From: a plasmid
Assembly (NCBI RefSeq): GCF_057098645.1
Contig: NZ_JBXSPU010000006.1
Strand: one strand, 5' to 3'
Length of the DNA: 4,063 nt
Numbering within the stretch: the first letter of the stretch is position 1; every line of letters begins with the position of its first letter. A program made the position numbers and the translations under genes. This document shows positions 1 to 4,063 of this stretch, one piece after another. The notes beneath the pieces were generated by a model, which was given only the letters and a program-made list of their open reading frames with translations, was not told the DNA's origin and did no database searches.

Positions 1-810
1 ACGTAGTGTGTACGAAGTTGCGTTGTCAGGAAGCCCGATATTCAGAAGGTCAGCCACACGGCGGGCAGGCTCTGTCAGCCCTCCGTTCCTGAGTTCGGTG
101 CGGGAAATCTGTATTTCCAGGTTAAGCCTGTTAATCAGACGATTCTGTTCGCCGCGTTCTGTTTCGATACCGCGTGTTTCCATCGCACAGGCAGACTTTC
201 CGAGGTGAATACCAGGCGTTTTCTCAAGCCCCTGTCGCTCGTATGAACGATGGTCTATCTCTTCCTGATAACCGGCGTTCGCCAGTGCCCTGTTTGCATG
301 GTCAGCCCATGATGCCCGCCACGTCTCGGCATGTGTCCGGTCGTTCCAGTCCCTGACCTTTCCGCTGAACCCAGCAGGTCCGATAGCCCTCGTGGTCAGC
401 ATGATGTGCGCATGGGGATTTGTTTTATCCATGTGATGGAACGCCACATCAGCAATCATGCCCTGACTGACAAAGTTTTCTCTGACAAAGGCGAGAACGG
501 TTTCCCGTGCGGCATCCTGCGGCAGTTCGTGGGGGATGGCGAGTTCAATTTCCCGCGCAAGTTGTGAGTTCTTCCGGCGTTCGGCCTTCTCAACGGCATT
601 CCAGAGTTCGGCACGGTTCGTACACCAGGCAGGGGCGGTGGCGGGGGTCAGAATCACAGCCTCAGCCACACCGCTTTTGCGGGTGTAGTCGTGAGTCAGT
701 CCGGTACGCTCATCAAGCATCAGTGAACCGGAACGATAGGCAGCGGAAGCTACGGCGCTGTAGCCGCTGCTTCTGGAGATAATTTTCATGCTGAGATGAT
801 AAATCGCCAT
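1..810 (-). CDS. mobA: MobA/MobL-family (MOBQ) relaxase, N-terminal relaxase domain; partial, ORF runs off the left window edge
   Basis: Minus-strand frame is open from ATG (plus 810-808) to position 1, 270 codons with no stop (translated by hand). The product starts MAIYHLSMKIISRSSGYSAVASAAYRSG..., with Tyr at residue 25, a His-rich motif NPHAHIMLT, and ...WADHANRALANAGYQEEIDHRSYERQGLEKTPGIHLGK.... These match my recollection of RSF1010 MobA (MAIYHL..., catalytic Y25, HxH motif, ...WADHANRALERAGHDARIDHRTLEAQGIERLPGVHLG...). An upstream in-frame stop lies at 916-918. The gene is absent from the supplied ORF track because it has no in-window stop. No strong Shine-Dalgarno precedes the ATG. Confidence 0.85.
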   Translation of the reverse strand, partial: MAIYHLSMKIISRSSGYSAVASAAYRSGSLMLDERTGLTHDYTRKSGVAEAVILTPATAPAWCTNRAELWNAVEKAERRKNSQLAREIELAIPHELPQDAARETVLAFVRENFVSQGMIADVAFHHMDKTNPHAHIMLTTRAIGPAGFSGKVRDWNDRTHAETWRASWADHANRALANAGYQEEIDHRSYERQGLEKTPGIHLGKSACAMETRGIETERGEQNRLINRLNLEIQISRTELRNGGLTEPARRVADLLNIGLPDNATSYTLR

Positions 811-988
811 TTCTGCCGTAATGCCTTTTTGTAGTTTTCTTTCAGCCCCGCAGGGCGCACACAATCGAAACGGAGTGGAGATTGTATAAGTGCGCACTTC
901 GTGATTTGCCGTGCATTATGCCAGCTCAGTTTTTAAACTACCAGTGACGCGCTAAAATGCGATTTTTCATCGCGCACGGAGTTACATC
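811..988. other. Candidate oriT and divergent mobA/mobC promoter region with MOBQ-like nic-core motifs
   Basis: Intergenic region between divergent mobA and mobC. Plus strand 887-897 reads TAAGTGCGCAC. Minus strand (reverse complement of 852-860) reads GTGCGCCCT. Both resemble the RSF1010/R1162 nic core TAAGTGCGCCCT as I recall it. The two motifs sit in an imperfect inverted repeat: GCGCACACAAT (855-865) and ATTGTATAAGTGCGC (881-895). A -10-like TAAAAT lies at 953-958 upstream of mobC. Confidence 0.5.
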
Positions 989-1243
989 ATGAGCAGAACG
1001 CTCGAACAGAAGATTGCTGATGCTGAGGCGAGATTACAGCGCCTGAAGGCGAAGAGCCGGAGCCTGGACACAGCGCAGAAGGTTGTTGTGGGTGCTGCAT
1101 TGCTGGCAAAGGTCAGAAAGCCGGAGGAGGTGCAGTTGCGTGCCTGGTTACTCCAGTTCCTGAAGGCAGAGGTGACACGACAGGCTGATGTGACGCGCAT
1201 ACTGCCGCTGATTAACGAGCTGGAGGCGCTGCCAGAACAGTGA
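989..1243 (+). CDS. mobC: MobC-like mobilization accessory protein (relaxosome component), 84 aa
   Basis: ATG at 989 with a GGAG Shine-Dalgarno at 978-981 (7-nt spacer) and TGA at 1241-1243. The product contains ...AQKVVVGAALLAKV..., resembling the RSF1010 MobC motif ...RKVLVGAMILAKV... as recalled. Size and position (divergent from mobA across oriT) fit mobC. Confidence 0.65.
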   Translation: MSRTLEQKIADAEARLQRLKAKSRSLDTAQKVVVGAALLAKVRKPEEVQLRAWLLQFLKAEVTRQADVTRILPLINELEALPEQ

Positions 1244-1252
1244 TTGTATCGT

Positions 1253-1311
1253 CCGCTCGCCGCAGCCCCAGCGACCGAGCGTTAGCGAGCGAGTGGGCGA
1301 GGAAGCGGAAG
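1253..1311. other. Segment resembling the ColE1/pMB1 region downstream of ori (putative single-strand initiation / primosome assembly site)
   Basis: CCGCTCGCCGCAGCCCCAGCGACCGAGCGTTAGCGAGCGAGTGGGCGAGGAAGCGGAAG aligns at roughly 80% identity to the pBR322/pUC backbone sequence CCGCTCGCCGCAGCCGAACGACCGAGCGCAGCGAGTCAGTGAGCGAGGAAGCGGAAG, recalled from memory. That sequence lies in the region I remember as containing a PriA-dependent pas/rri site. It contains the inverted repeat GCTCGC...GCGAGC. Confidence 0.4.
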
Positions 1312-1483
1312 TGAATCAGTCGCCAGGTTGAGCACATACGCACGGTTTTTCGGCAGGTGATATGCGCTGAACCCGCATGAATACTGGGTTTCCACAGGGT
1401 TGGAGGGGGTGTATTCGAAACTTGCAATTCTGCTTTATTGCAACGCATTGTTTTTATTGGTTTTTTGTTTTCAGCACCCCAAG

Positions 1484-1492
1484 TTATCCACA
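1484..1492 (+). promoter_or_regulatory. DnaA box, perfect match to consensus TTATCCACA
   Basis: TTATCCACA at 1484-1492, immediately upstream of the AT-rich region and iterons, the typical place for a DnaA box in Rep_3 origins such as pSC101. Confidence 0.6.
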
Positions 1493-1499
1493 GGCTCGC

Positions 1500-1590
1500 C
1501 GTTAAGTTTTTAAGATCTTATTTTTAGATCTTTTTTTTTAAAACCTTTTTAGGTCTTGTAACACCATGATTTTAAAGATGTTCTGGCAAG
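1500..1590. other. AT-rich region of oriV (candidate DNA unwinding element) with two AGATCT (GATC) sites
   Basis: Strongly AT-rich, with T-runs (e.g. 1531-1539). AGATCT occurs at 1513-1518 and 1526-1531. It lies between the DnaA box and the iterons. Confidence 0.5.
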
Positions 1591-1594
1591 ATAA

Positions 1595-1678
1595 GTGGAG
1601 CTTTTGGGGGTGAAAGGTGGAGCTTTTGGGGGTGAAAGGTGGAGCTTTTGGGGGTGAAAGGTGGAGCTTTTGGGGGTG
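1595..1678 (+). repeat. Iterons: three perfect tandem 22-bp direct repeats (GTGGAGCTTTTGGGGGTGAAAG) plus a fourth 18-bp partial copy; RepA binding sites of oriV
   Basis: Perfect copies at 1595-1616, 1617-1638 and 1639-1660; partial copy at 1661-1678. The repeats are contiguous with no spacers and lie about 100 bp upstream of repA. A 22-bp unit is roughly two helical turns. Confidence 0.9.
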
Positions 1679-1687
1679 TAATCCACA
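1679..1687 (+). promoter_or_regulatory. DnaA-box-like sequence TAATCCACA (8/9 to consensus) abutting the last iteron
   Basis: TAATCCACA at 1679-1687 has one mismatch to TTATCCACA. The iteron array would then be flanked by DnaA boxes. Confidence 0.35.
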
Positions 1688-1698
1688 GAAAAAGGGGG

Positions 1699-1728
1699 TT
1701 GCAAAAAAAAAACTTCCACCCATATGAT
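1699..1728 (+). promoter_or_regulatory. Candidate sigma70 promoter of repA
   Basis: TTGCAA at 1699-1704, an 18-bp spacer, then TATGAT at 1723-1728, about 50 bp upstream of the repA ATG. Confidence 0.4.
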
Positions 1729-1755
1729 AAGTGGCGTACAGTAAAAAAACGCCAC
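1725..1755. promoter_or_regulatory. Candidate RepA operator: inverted repeat GTGGCGT / ACGCCAC overlapping the repA promoter, with an iteron-like half-site GATAAGTGG
   Basis: GTGGCGT (1731-1737) and ACGCCAC (1749-1755) are inverted repeats separated by 11 nt. GATAAGTGG (1726-1734) matches the left end of the first iteron (GATAAGTGGAGC at 1590-1601). Rep_3 initiators commonly autorepress through such sites. Confidence 0.4.
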
Positions 1756-1776
1756 CAATAGCAACGAGCAAGCGAA

Positions 1777-2478
1777 ATGTCAGATCTGATAGCTTACAAA
1801 TCAAACGCCCTTATCGAGGCAAGCTACAAGCTCACTTTGCAGGAACAGCGCTTCCTGCTGGTCTGTATCAGCCGCCTAAAATCCGGAGAAGATTCCCCTT
1901 CGCCGGATGAACAAAAAACCATGACCATCACGGCTGCAGAGTTTCATGATGCCTTTCCTGACATGGGACGGCAGCACGCTGAAGCTAGGCTCAAGGAAGC
2001 GATAGATCGCCTCTGGGACAGGTCAGTAATCATCAAGAACGAGGAAAAACGAGAAGAGTTCCGCTGGGTGCAGTACCGGGCGCAGTATTTCAAAGGTGAG
2101 GCGAAAGTAGATATCACCTTCTCCGATGCCATCATGCCGTATCTGACACAGCTCAAGGGGCAGTTTACGCGGGTAGTCGTGAAGAACGTCTCCAGCCTTT
2201 CCAGCACCTACAGCATCCGCATTTACGAGCTGCTCCAGCAGTTCCGCAGCACCGGTGACAGAACGATAGCTATCGATGATTTCCGAACCATGCTTGCCGT
2301 TGAAGATAAATATCAACAATTCAAAGACTTGAATAAGATGATAATCAAGCCAGCCATCGCCGAACTGAACGAAAAAAGCGATCTGGTTGTAGCTGTTGAG
2401 ACGATCAAAAAGGGGCGCACGGTTGTAGCCCTGCATTTTCGCTTCAAGGAAGACAAACAGATCAAGATGACGATCTAA
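1777..2478 (+). CDS. repA: Rep_3-family plasmid replication initiator (iteron-binding RepA), 233 aa
   Basis: ATG at 1777 and TAA at 2476-2478. The product has MSDLIAYKSNALIEASYKLTLQEQRFLL... and ...ITFSDAIMPYLTQLKGQFT...YSIRIYELL..., matching the pattern of pSC101-type RepA as recalled (MSELVVFKANELAISRYDLTEHETKLIL..., ...LTFSEEILPYLFQLKK...YSMRIYEWLL...). It sits directly downstream of the iterons. Confidence 0.9.
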   Translation: MSDLIAYKSNALIEASYKLTLQEQRFLLVCISRLKSGEDSPSPDEQKTMTITAAEFHDAFPDMGRQHAEARLKEAIDRLWDRSVIIKNEEKREEFRWVQYRAQYFKGEAKVDITFSDAIMPYLTQLKGQFTRVVVKNVSSLSSTYSIRIYELLQQFRSTGDRTIAIDDFRTMLAVEDKYQQFKDLNKMIIKPAIAELNEKSDLVVAVETIKKGRTVVALHFRFKEDKQIKMTI

Positions 2479-2499
2479 AATCGATTTTAAGGCACCTAA

Positions 2500-2523
2500 A
2501 ACGCTCCCTGCTGCGTTTTTTTT
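2500..2523 (+). terminator. Possible weak intrinsic terminator of repA
   Basis: Short stem AACGC (2500-2504) / GCGTT (2513-2517) with an 8-nt loop, followed by a run of 8 T (2516-2523), about 25 nt after the repA stop. The stem is short, so this is low confidence. Confidence 0.3.
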
Positions 2524-2585
2524 GTGTTAGTAGTGCGAAGGTACTATTGAAGTGAAAAATTGCGTCAAAAACGCTCTGATGCAGC

Positions 2586-2612
2586 GAAAAAAGACCCCCC
2601 AATTTTTGGGGG
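2586..2612 (-). terminator. Intrinsic terminator on the minus strand (for the long minus-strand ORF / mobA)
   Basis: On the minus strand: CCCCCAA-AAA-TTGGGGG hairpin (plus 2596-2612), then G, UC and a U7 tract (plus A-run 2586-2592). It lies about 115 nt downstream of the ORF stop at 2726. Confidence 0.5.
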
Positions 2613-2725
2613 CGGAAAAACAAAACTATGCTTGCGTTATGTGAGTGTGCTTCTTGCATTCATCCCTGTCGATGAACATCGACGAACATAACACGATGTT
2701 AAACAAAACAAAATATTGTTCACAT

Positions 2726-4063
2726 TCACTGTGACCAACCGCGATCATGTCTCCTCTCGGTGGTGTGTGTTCGTGCATCTTCCTCGCGCTGCCATTCCTC
2801 CCAGGTACGATTAAAACCCAGCGAGCGGAACAGATGATCCGGCTGTTTTTCTGGTGTGTTGACGGCAGCAAAAAGCGGTGCCTCACGGGTTTTCAGATGA
2901 AACTGCATCAGTTCTGGTGCAGGTGATATGTGGCTGTCTGCATCGTGATTTACGGCAACACCATACCCTGCATACCGTAACCCCTTATCGGTCAGCGCAC
3001 TGATGACCAGATGCCTGTTATCGGCTGAGGGAACGGCAAACGCGGGATACAGCGTACCATTAAGCCGGATAACACCGCCCAGAGAGTCATCCACGCCCAT
3101 GACCAGCAAAAGCTGAAGCTGGCGGGTTTCCCGGTCGACAGAACTCATGACCGGCATCAGCGTCGGTGGCAGACGTCCCTGCATAAAATCCACCTTCCTT
3201 GCCGCTGGTGATGGCATGGCTGGCTGGCGGTCTTCTCCAAGACAGAAAGACTCCGGCCATGTCTTCGGCTGGCGGAGATTGCGGGTATGTTGCGGCCATG
3301 TCTGGCAAACCTGCGTCAGCAGTTGCTCAAAGGTTGCAGAGGAATAAACACGTTGCAGTGGCGGACGTTGGCCGATTTCGCTTCGGTCACAGATATAACC
3401 ACTCCTGTCACGCATTAAATCAACACTCTCAAAGATTCTGGTGCGGTATTTCTCCAGCTCGTTCCCCCAGAGCGTATATTCTCCGTTCCGGTTGTGAAGC
3501 AGAAGGTAACAGGTCATTTCCCCGTTACCAGGCATGGGAGCCTCGCCATACCCCGTAACGACTGCTCTCAGCACCCCTGAATCCATAACGGCATTGTCAT
3601 TTTTCCTGAGCTGCTCCGCGCGACTACGTTCAGTATCTTCCTGTTCCTTCCGGCGCAATTCCTCTTCACGTTTAAGCAACTGGGCTCTGAGAGCTGCAAG
3701 GCCGGATTCCCCCCACTGCTGCCACTGTTTTTCAAATGCCATCTGACTCGCGGGAATGTCCTGTTTCTCCACCTTCCGGTAATGCTGTCGTAATTTTTCC
3801 ATTTGCTGGCTCAGAGACTGGATTTTTCCCTGCTCACTACGGTATTCCGGTGCCGCCCATTGCATCAGGGGAATACGGGAAAAACCGGACGAAAACGGCG
3901 ATGATTTTTTCAGGCTGGCAGCATGGCTCATCGCTTCCTTTCGTTCGGTGTTCAGCTCTTCCCAGCGTCTGCGCGTCGCCTGCATATCTGCCATCATCGA
4001 CATGGCATTACTGGTGAGTTTCCATGCCGAGTTACTGTCCTTCGGCAACGCTTCGATAATGTC
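2726..4063 (-). CDS. mobA: Long ORF with complete 3' end and frame open to the right window edge; most likely the C-terminal ~445 codons of mobA continuing across the junction of a circular molecule, otherwise a 5'-truncated gene of unknown function
   Basis: Minus-strand frame has no stop from 4063 down to TGA at 2726-2728. E. coli-like codon usage (CTG-rich). The supplied track starts at a TTG at 4048, but five further sense codons (DIIEA) precede it up to the edge, and no in-window ATG has a convincing Shine-Dalgarno. The last codon at the right edge (4061-4063) and the mobA codon at the left edge (1-3) are both complete, so on a 4063-bp circle the two ORFs join in frame (...SYTLR|DIIEALPKDSNSAWKL...) into about 715 aa. 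The N-terminal ~150 residues of this part are charged and helical (e.g. LLKREEELRRKEQEDTERSRAEQLRKN); the remainder is globular with no Walker A or other motif I can recognise. Confidence 0.6.
   Translation of the reverse strand, partial: DIIEALPKDSNSAWKLTSNAMSMMADMQATRRRWEELNTERKEAMSHAASLKKSSPFSSGFSRIPLMQWAAPEYRSEQGKIQSLSQQMEKLRQHYRKVEKQDIPASQMAFEKQWQQWGESGLAALRAQLLKREEELRRKEQEDTERSRAEQLRKNDNAVMDSGVLRAVVTGYGEAPMPGNGEMTCYLLLHNRNGEYTLWGNELEKYRTRIFESVDLMRDRSGYICDRSEIGQRPPLQRVYSSATFEQLLTQVCQTWPQHTRNLRQPKTWPESFCLGEDRQPAMPSPAARKVDFMQGRLPPTLMPVMSSVDRETRQLQLLLVMGVDDSLGGVIRLNGTLYPAFAVPSADNRHLVISALTDKGLRYAGYGVAVNHDADSHISPAPELMQFHLKTREAPLFAAVNTPEKQPDHLFRSLGFNRTWEEWQREEDARTHTTERRHDRGWSQ

Follow-up and report, generated by a model that had tools for sequence, protein, structure and literature searches.

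Mobilisable plasmids with MOBQ4 relaxases rank with the most common small plasmids found in clinical E. coli, Salmonella, and Shigella, and some of them carry colicins. Among 5426 complete E. coli genomes, 537 were found to contain MOBQ4 plasmids. What determines which conjugative plasmid will move a mobilisable one has long been a practical question. For the MOBQ4 plasmids, the best helpers described are R64drd11 (IncI1) and pCTX-M3, both MPF_I; F-type plasmids fail, and RP4, R751, and R6K, which have no Sog, also mobilise them, less well (Garcillan-Barcia et al., 2019, PMC6856555). The MOBQ4 relaxase acts in cis, and its C-terminal domain was already stated there to have "low homology to SogL primases"; the part of Sog matched was left unnamed, and the domain was neither analysed further nor tested for function (PMC6856555). 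A literature search found no later paper analysing the MOBQ4 tail, and one for translocation signals in SogL brought up nothing relevant.

The Sog proteins are themselves transferred. Hundreds of copies of SogL reach the recipient by an export that does not depend on DNA (PMC8406263), and SogS, which consists of the C-terminal 844 residues and lacks the primase, is also transported (PMC6112013). In a Tn-seq study of pESBL (IncI1), the SogS part scored 1.00 as "required for transfer," with about a quarter of sogL dispensable (PMC4288162); loss of sog from R64 is reported to lower transfer only about 10-fold (PMC6112013). The other described system of immediate relevance is MobA-RepB' of RSF1010/R1162 (MOBQ1), in which a relaxase of the same fold likewise has a large C-terminal extension.

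The plasmid and its relaxase gene

The stretch of DNA analysed here (the window, 4063 bp) is the whole of a circular E. coli plasmid. At least eight E. coli plasmid records of exactly this length match it at 100% identity, and database typing describes the plasmid as mobilizable, MOBQ, rep_cluster_1778. On the identical pEC224_6, the RefSeq annotation consists of three genes, two of them encoding a Rep_3-type initiator and a 715-aa "MobQ family relaxase" and the third being mobC. The backbone is that of MOBQ41, a ~4-kb plasmid having a Rep_3 initiator with iterons and mobC divergent from mobA, and the plasmid belongs to MOBQ41 as published by Garcillan-Barcia et al. (2019, PMC6856555).

Because the window is circular, the minus-strand ORF of interest spans the linearisation point. 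The true relaxase CDS runs from 810 to 1 and on from 4063 to 2726, and its 715-aa product is identical to RefSeq WP_001029354.1. The peptides quoted in the preliminary description were located in the minus-strand ORF at 2726–4048; the residues numbered ~160–445 there correspond, once the ORF is followed around the circle, to residues 435–715 of 715, which are the region studied here. The features of the window are as follows.

1–810, minus strand: 5' part of the mobQ (mobA) CDS, residues 1–270, with its ATG at 810–808 (circular reconstruction; RefSeq of identical plasmid)
2726–4063, minus strand: 3' part of the mobQ CDS, residues 271–715 plus the stop codon at 2728–2726
232–810, minus strand: relaxase catalytic domain, residues 1–193, with Y25, E87/E89, and H125/H133/H135
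3572–4063, minus strand: linker and charged helical segment, residues 271–434 (domain-wise BLAST)
3446–3571, minus strand: sub-domain a, residues 435–476, a predicted three-strand beta unit plus a short helix (alignment, model)
3362–3445, minus strand: low-confidence stretch, residues 477–504 (alignment gap, pLDDT)
2804–3361, minus strand: core of the Sog-C-like module, residues 505–690, predicted helix plus ~11 beta strands
2837–3076, minus strand: stretch at ~80% nucleotide identity to sog, residues about 600–679 (blastn, sliding window)
2729–2803, minus strand: charged C-terminal tail, predicted helical, residues 691–715
989–1243, plus strand: mobC, relaxase accessory protein gene (84 aa), divergent from mobQ (RefSeq of identical plasmids)
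811–988, no strand assigned: mobQ-mobC intergenic region, putative place of oriT, from MOBQ gene organisation
1568–2478, plus strand: replicon, with five 22-bp iterons at 1568–1699 and the Rep_3-type rep gene at 1777–2478

The N-terminal part of the product raises few questions. Residues 1–193 match the NCBIfam MobQ equivalog NF041496 at 264 bits (cut-off 200), and the PDB entries for NES (4HT4, E 3e-27) and MobA (2NS6) match residues 2–190 (2–181 for 2NS6). The residues Y25, E87/E89, and H125/H133/H135 are those named for MOBQ41 in PMC6856555, so that by its sequence the product is a MobQ relaxase of MOBQ41 type. In catalytic residues, Rep_3 replicon, divergent mobC, and ~4-kb size, no difference from the published MOBQ4 relaxases and their plasmids was found. 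The following segment, residues 271–434, has BLAST matches to MobQ proteins only; it is common to MOBQ4 relaxases and not found in Sog.

Beyond this point the usual resources are blank. The NCBIfam MobQ and TraA models reach only residues 1–240; Pfam gives nothing at E<=0.001 in the last 440 aa, and nothing worth naming at E<=0.1 when 21 family members are searched one by one. Against PDB chains, phmmer with the region found no primase or related sequence, and hmmsearch with the 21-sequence profile returned zero matches at E<=10, RepB' included. The preliminary description, which could name no motif or domain in the C-terminal region, is thus borne out by Pfam, NCBIfam, and PDB sequence and profile searches, and no solved fold, PDB sequence, or Pfam family identifies the region. 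A search for internal in-frame starts that could give a free-standing tail, as for sogS and repB', turned up one weak candidate, M564, after AAGGAAGGTGGA.

Homology to Sog, predicted structure, and selection

A search of 5.8 billion proteins with the region returned near-identical relaxases together with proteins named "DNA primase" or "LPD7 domain-containing," at 43–45% identity over 94% of the query. The primase-named homologues are on large conjugative plasmids, with matches in 2924 plasmid records. On pSE11-1 the homologous gene has 1255 codons and lies between nuc and traL in the IncI transfer region, and its product has an EGYATA primase motif near the N-terminus; position, length (1255 aa), and motif together identify it as sog. 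The relaxase tail (query positions 11–280) aligns with residues 947–1244 of this Sog at 45% identity (E 6e-74). The primase of Sog occupies about residues 1–400 and is followed by an acidic linker and LPD7 (776–861, Pfam), so the match lies beyond all of these, at the extreme C-terminus, and the database name "primase" is misleading for this module. The primase and LPD7 segments of Sog have no match on MobQ, where the relaxase stands in their place.

The Sog proteins of IncI1, I-gamma, K, B/O, and Z plasmids (SogL/SogS), and the Sog-like "Pri/TraC" of other MPF_I plasmids, resemble the MobQ tail along the full length of the module, which in both is at the very end of the protein and has the same invariant G/L/P/F pattern. 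They differ in what precedes it: primase, long acidic linker, and LPD7 in Sog; relaxase and charged helical segment in MobQ. The region had been presented as having no recognisable function and as the one place in the window where an unknown function could sit; it is no orphan, being homologous along its full length to the non-primase C-terminus of Sog, a link already contained in one sentence of PMC6856555. The plasmid family and its Sog similarity are thus in the literature. Added here are the delimitation of the module, the exclusion of the primase, the distribution over two architectures, the predicted barrel without catalytic residues, and the evidence for sog/mobQ exchange.

The same comparison bears on whether the region is a diverged primase like RepB' in RSF1010 MobA-RepB', as the preliminary description had offered for consideration. 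The architecture is analogous, a relaxase plus a C-terminal extension, and homologues carry "DNA primase" names, although those derive from the N-terminal domain of Sog. The Sog alignment, however, covers only 947–1244, with the EGYATA domain at the opposite end of the protein; the PDB sequence and profile searches described above did not recover RepB'; and the family has no invariant D, E, or H. The MobQ41 extension is unrelated to RepB' in sequence and predicted fold, has no catalytic residues, and shows no primase fold, which makes a primase an extremely improbable identity for it. The C-terminal domain of R1162 reportedly carries a type IV transport signal as well.

An alignment of 21 sequences (A1) has 10 invariant columns. 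Conserved positions are restricted to G, L, P, F, W, A, and T, with R462, R633 (17 of 21 sequences), and N642 partly conserved; no D, E, H, K, C, or S is invariant. This pattern, without catalytic residues, points to a binding or scaffold module rather than an enzyme. In sub-domain a, the residues conserved between MobQ and Sog are G443, L459, and W469-G470, and at the end of the core P674 and L685-G686-F687 are invariant. MobQ41 shows a gap in the alignment where sub-domain a of Sog is completed by about 30 further residues, and the last ~25 residues differ between MobQ41 and Sog, whose tail ends ...HSPGR.

An AlphaFold2 model from alignment A1 (mean pLDDT 78, pTM 0.69) distinguishes four parts in the region: a small beta unit spanning residues 436–476 (pLDDT about 70); a low-confidence stretch at 480–504 (pLDDT <50 at model residues 56–80), which coincides with the ~30-residue deletion relative to Sog; a confident core at ~505–690 (pLDDT about 90), with one helix and then a meander of ~11 strands; and a charged, predicted helical tail at 691–715. 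The globular region of ~280 aa proposed from the sequence alone thus keeps its confident core and loses its unity. The core fold, generic and beta-barrel-like in the prediction, is the same as that predicted for Sog C-termini.

A degenerate second copy of the LPD7 (PF18821) repeat within the core was considered and rejected: none of the 21 members has a Pfam match to it, and hhalign gives 7% probability over 26 columns. The idea had come from the likeness of "GGVIRLNGT" to "GGVIELTGS" and a single BLAST match (E 5e-5), and was not borne out.

The module occurs only in Sog-like proteins and MOBQ4 relaxases. When 1.84 billion representative proteins were scanned exhaustively with HMMER, only 81 matched, and all 16 long matches are either primase-linker-LPD7-tail (Sog-like) or MobQ4 relaxase-tail proteins. 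A match to P0125 (1085 aa, five matching stretches) was set aside as spurious, the protein being a cadherin-like repeat protein. Foldseek against AFDB50 gave 100 matches at E<=0.001, of which the best 50 are all Sog-like or MobQ4, including entries named SogS. In pSE11-1 and in three distant carriers that were checked (P. syringae pDC3000B, a 64-kb K. pneumoniae plasmid, and an E. coli IncK2/Z plasmid), the gene is inside a Dot/Icm-like (MPF_I) transfer operon, in the same slot in all. NikB, the cognate IncI relaxase, is not among the module homologues found in the scan of 1.84 billion representative proteins, so the module is not a universal entry ticket for this channel.

Could the tail be a functionless, decaying remnant of past recombination with sog? 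Sub-domain a is shortened, the extreme tail is unlike that of Sog, and dN/dS (0.27–0.33, against two natural variants) is above that of the relaxase domain (0.08–0.16). Still, the region is under purifying selection; the reading frame is intact in 386 plasmid records covering at least 80% of the window; and no frameshift or stop before residue 505 was seen among full-length records, the frameshifted fragments coming from error-prone assemblies. The module is also kept in MOBQ41, MOBQ42, and two further MobQ lineages, with a core predicted at high confidence. Decay, which the preliminary description had tied to an absence of conserved homologues, is on these grounds very improbable.

Tail types and exchange with sog

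An all-against-all comparison resolved discrete tail types. Type A comprises the common IncI-type Sogs, 52–85% identical to each other, to which the MobQ41 tail of the window is 39–45% identical; the MOBQ42 tail of a colicin E2 plasmid is a looser member (40% to MobQ41, 33–37% to Sog). Type B comprises Sog P0094 and the MobQ relaxases P0100 and P0083, whose tails are 75–79% and 61% identical, respectively, to that of P0094. Both of these relaxase tails have only 26% identity to that of the window, while for the corresponding relaxase domains the figures are 71% and 78% (70–78% overall). With similar relaxases carrying different tails, the tail phylogeny cuts across the relaxase phylogeny.

A comparison of conjugative plasmids suggests what the tail follows. 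Between the IncK2/Z plasmid with a type-B Sog (NZ_CP055049.1) and pSE11-1, the T4SS proteins are only 39–57% identical, whereas over its first 1380 nt, which encode the primase, sog has 93.6% nucleotide identity. In this one plasmid pair, the tail follows the machine while the primase is freely exchanged.

Nucleotide identity between the window's tail and sog is uneven, at 33–52% over residues 425–575 and 70–87% over residues 604–683, the latter including a blastn match of 240 nt at ~80%. In pEC20-5, a MOBQ41 variant, a patch of 60 nt (residues 623–642) has three differences to sog where the window has 12; pEC20-5 and the window differ at 13 positions within the patch and at 0–3 per 30 nt in the upstream flank. 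By its pattern of differences the patch is identifiable as a gene-conversion tract. Taken with the protein alignments, the module evidently shares ancestry with the extreme C-terminus of Sog and still exchanges sequence with sog.

Lineage matching and continuing homogenisation with sog would also be expected if the module bound Sog itself, like with like, and so either hitch-hiked on Sog export or recruited the helper primase to the strand in the recipient. The replicon of the plasmid is of Rep_3 type, and no primase is encoded; borrowing the Sog primase for complementary-strand synthesis would be useful. Against such binding, RP4 and R751 still mobilise MOBQ4 plasmids without Sog (PMC6856555), and it is regarded as distinctly unlikely.

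Possible roles of the module

The favoured reading, which has about an even chance of being right, is that residues 435–715 are a non-enzymatic docking or translocation module matched to the helper. A coupling or recruitment domain had been one of several options in the preliminary description; it is now the preferred one, at the strength just given for the putative role. In the proposed mechanism, the N-terminal domain would nick oriT and remain covalently attached to the transferred strand; the Sog-like tail would make the foreign relaxase-DNA complex resemble a native substrate, which the coupling protein and T4SS of the helper would accept and export; and variants of the tail would be matched to helper T4SS lineages. 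In a receptor-mimicry variant, the relaxase tail would bind whatever the Sog tail binds. The module would then presumably leave the cell through the I-type T4SS, as SogL and SogS do as whole proteins.

The argument for docking is one of economy. Having no coupling protein of its own, a mobilisable plasmid depends on the machine of the helper to accept its relaxase, and in the present relaxase the tail is the only part shared with any helper protein, in this case the most abundantly exported substrate; it is also lineage-matched and recombining. The preference of MOBQ4 plasmids for the MPF_I helpers R64drd11 and pCTX-M3 can be set beside this. Several observations count against docking: the absence of NikB from the module homologues; the less efficient mobilisation by RP4, R751, and R6K, which have no Sog; the drop of only about 10-fold reported for transfer of R64 without sog; the ~30 residues of sub-domain a absent from MobQ41; and the lack of conservation between MobQ41 and Sog in the extreme tail, a frequent location of T4SS signals.

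Co-residence of MOBQ4 plasmids and sog was also looked at as helper evidence and discarded. Among complete E. coli genomes, 184 have both against 103 expected (odds ratio 2.5, p 1e-18, by inclusion-exclusion), but the control, traD of F, which is not a helper, was equally enriched (odds ratio 2.9), so the signal says only that the genomes are plasmid-rich.

The charge of the module bears on a different role, that of a domain binding or handling ssDNA, which would hold or protect the T-strand in donor or recipient. Sog proteins have been proposed to coat and stabilise the transferred strand (PMC6112013), and sub-domain a of Sog is basic (pI 9.6). The core, however, has a neutral to acidic pI, 6.5 in MobQ and 4.9 in Sog, and no conserved basic or aromatic surface pattern, and the basic sub-domain a is the part shortened in MobQ41. 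Lineage-matched types and co-variation with T4SS genes would be unexpected for a generic DNA binder, and this role is considered rather unlikely.

The docking reading can be carried further. The C-terminal module of Sog may be a portable address tag by which Dot/Icm-like (MPF_I) machines recognise protein substrates, matched to the lineage of the machine and repeatedly stolen from, and by recombination re-synchronised with, the sog of the helper by small parasitic plasmids, whose relaxase would thereby imitate the protein that the helper exports most; this broader proposal is plausible, if somewhat short of an even chance. A conceptual parallel is the BID domain, likewise a C-terminal non-enzymatic module, found both in a relaxase and in a protein exported by the same T4SS. 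BID is reportedly a secretion signal in Bartonella Bep effectors and in alphaproteobacterial conjugative relaxases. It differs from the present module in being a helical bundle and in serving T4SSs of the VirB/D4 type, and its signal function is proven, where that of the MobQ tail is one that we infer. To our knowledge, no substrate-recognition determinant is known for Dot/Icm-like conjugation systems.

An address tag, if real, would account for the helper specificity of the MOBQ4 plasmids and be the counterpart, for MPF_I, of the BID domain. If the tail is the determinant, the requirement of IncI transfer for the non-primase part of sog would have an explanation, and helper specificity would reside in a swappable module of ~200 residues and would become both predictable and testable.

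Plasmid layout and the relaxase reading frame

The plasmid is circular and complete in the window, and its linearisation point cuts the relaxase ORF in two; in the mechanical ORF list the 715-aa relaxase appears only as a 440-aa piece with a TTG start at 4048.

1-810 and 2726-4063, minus strand: relaxase ORF, the halves separated by the linearisation point
1515-1545 and 1697-1728: A/T runs on both sides of the iterons
1568-1699: upstream of rep, a 22-bp iteron repeated five times in tandem (consensus GAAAGGTGGAGCTTTTGGGGGT)
1777-2478: rep, 3' of the iterons
3182-3184, minus strand: in-frame ATG (codon M564), with AAGGAAGGTGGA upstream at Shine-Dalgarno distance
3362-3445: stretch left at the MobQ41 deletion (residues 477-504), predicted to be disordered

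Internal restarts give rise to SogS within sog and to RepB' within mobA of RSF1010. Since the relaxase gene also has a candidate ATG, at M564, in a low-confidence loop directly ahead of the conserved barrel of the tail, a separate 152-aa tail product starting there is conceivable but unsupported.

Variation at the start of the tail

About 30 residues completing the first small beta unit of the tail (sub-domain a) are absent from MobQ41 but present in all Sog and type-B MobQ tails. In P0083, an 824-aa MobQ4 relaxase encoded at 838-3312 of a 7431-bp Logan contig (SRR23994534), sub-domain a occurs twice and is followed by a type-B tail. This plasmid is of the Rep_3 type, and its cargo, a glycosyl hydrolase family 28 gene together with an MFS transporter, is unusual for this family of otherwise cryptic plasmids.

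Occurrence in genomes and databases

The 537 complete E. coli genomes, out of 5426, that have MOBQ4 relaxase genes are simply rich in plasmids: IncI-type sog is enriched among them (34% vs 17%), and so is F-type traD (74% vs 50%). Fragments 94-98% identical to the E. coli relaxase are also filed under Lactobacillus crispatus, Bacteroides ovatus, Gardnerella vaginalis, Bifidobacterium longum and a Myxococcus species, most likely through contamination or mis-binning of this abundant small plasmid in these assemblies.

Exchange of sog segments

In the MOBQ41 variant pEC20-5 (NZ_CP060906.1), mobQ codons 617-647 (equivalent to approximately 2930-3020 in the window) form a sog-like tract, of which 60 nt have three differences from the sog of pSE11-1 and 13 from the window plasmid. 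In the flanks of the tract, the mobQ41 genes of pEC20-5 and the window plasmid are 93-100% identical to each other. The tract is a gene conversion with a sog-like donor.

The sog gene itself is a mosaic, as a comparison of the IncK2/Z plasmid NZ_CP055049.1 with pSE11-1 shows. The part encoding the primase domain (the first ~1380 nt) is 93.6% identical between the two, while the Sog tails share 27% identity and the traK, L, M, N and O products 39-57%. The Sog primase domain seems to move independently between MPF_I lineages.
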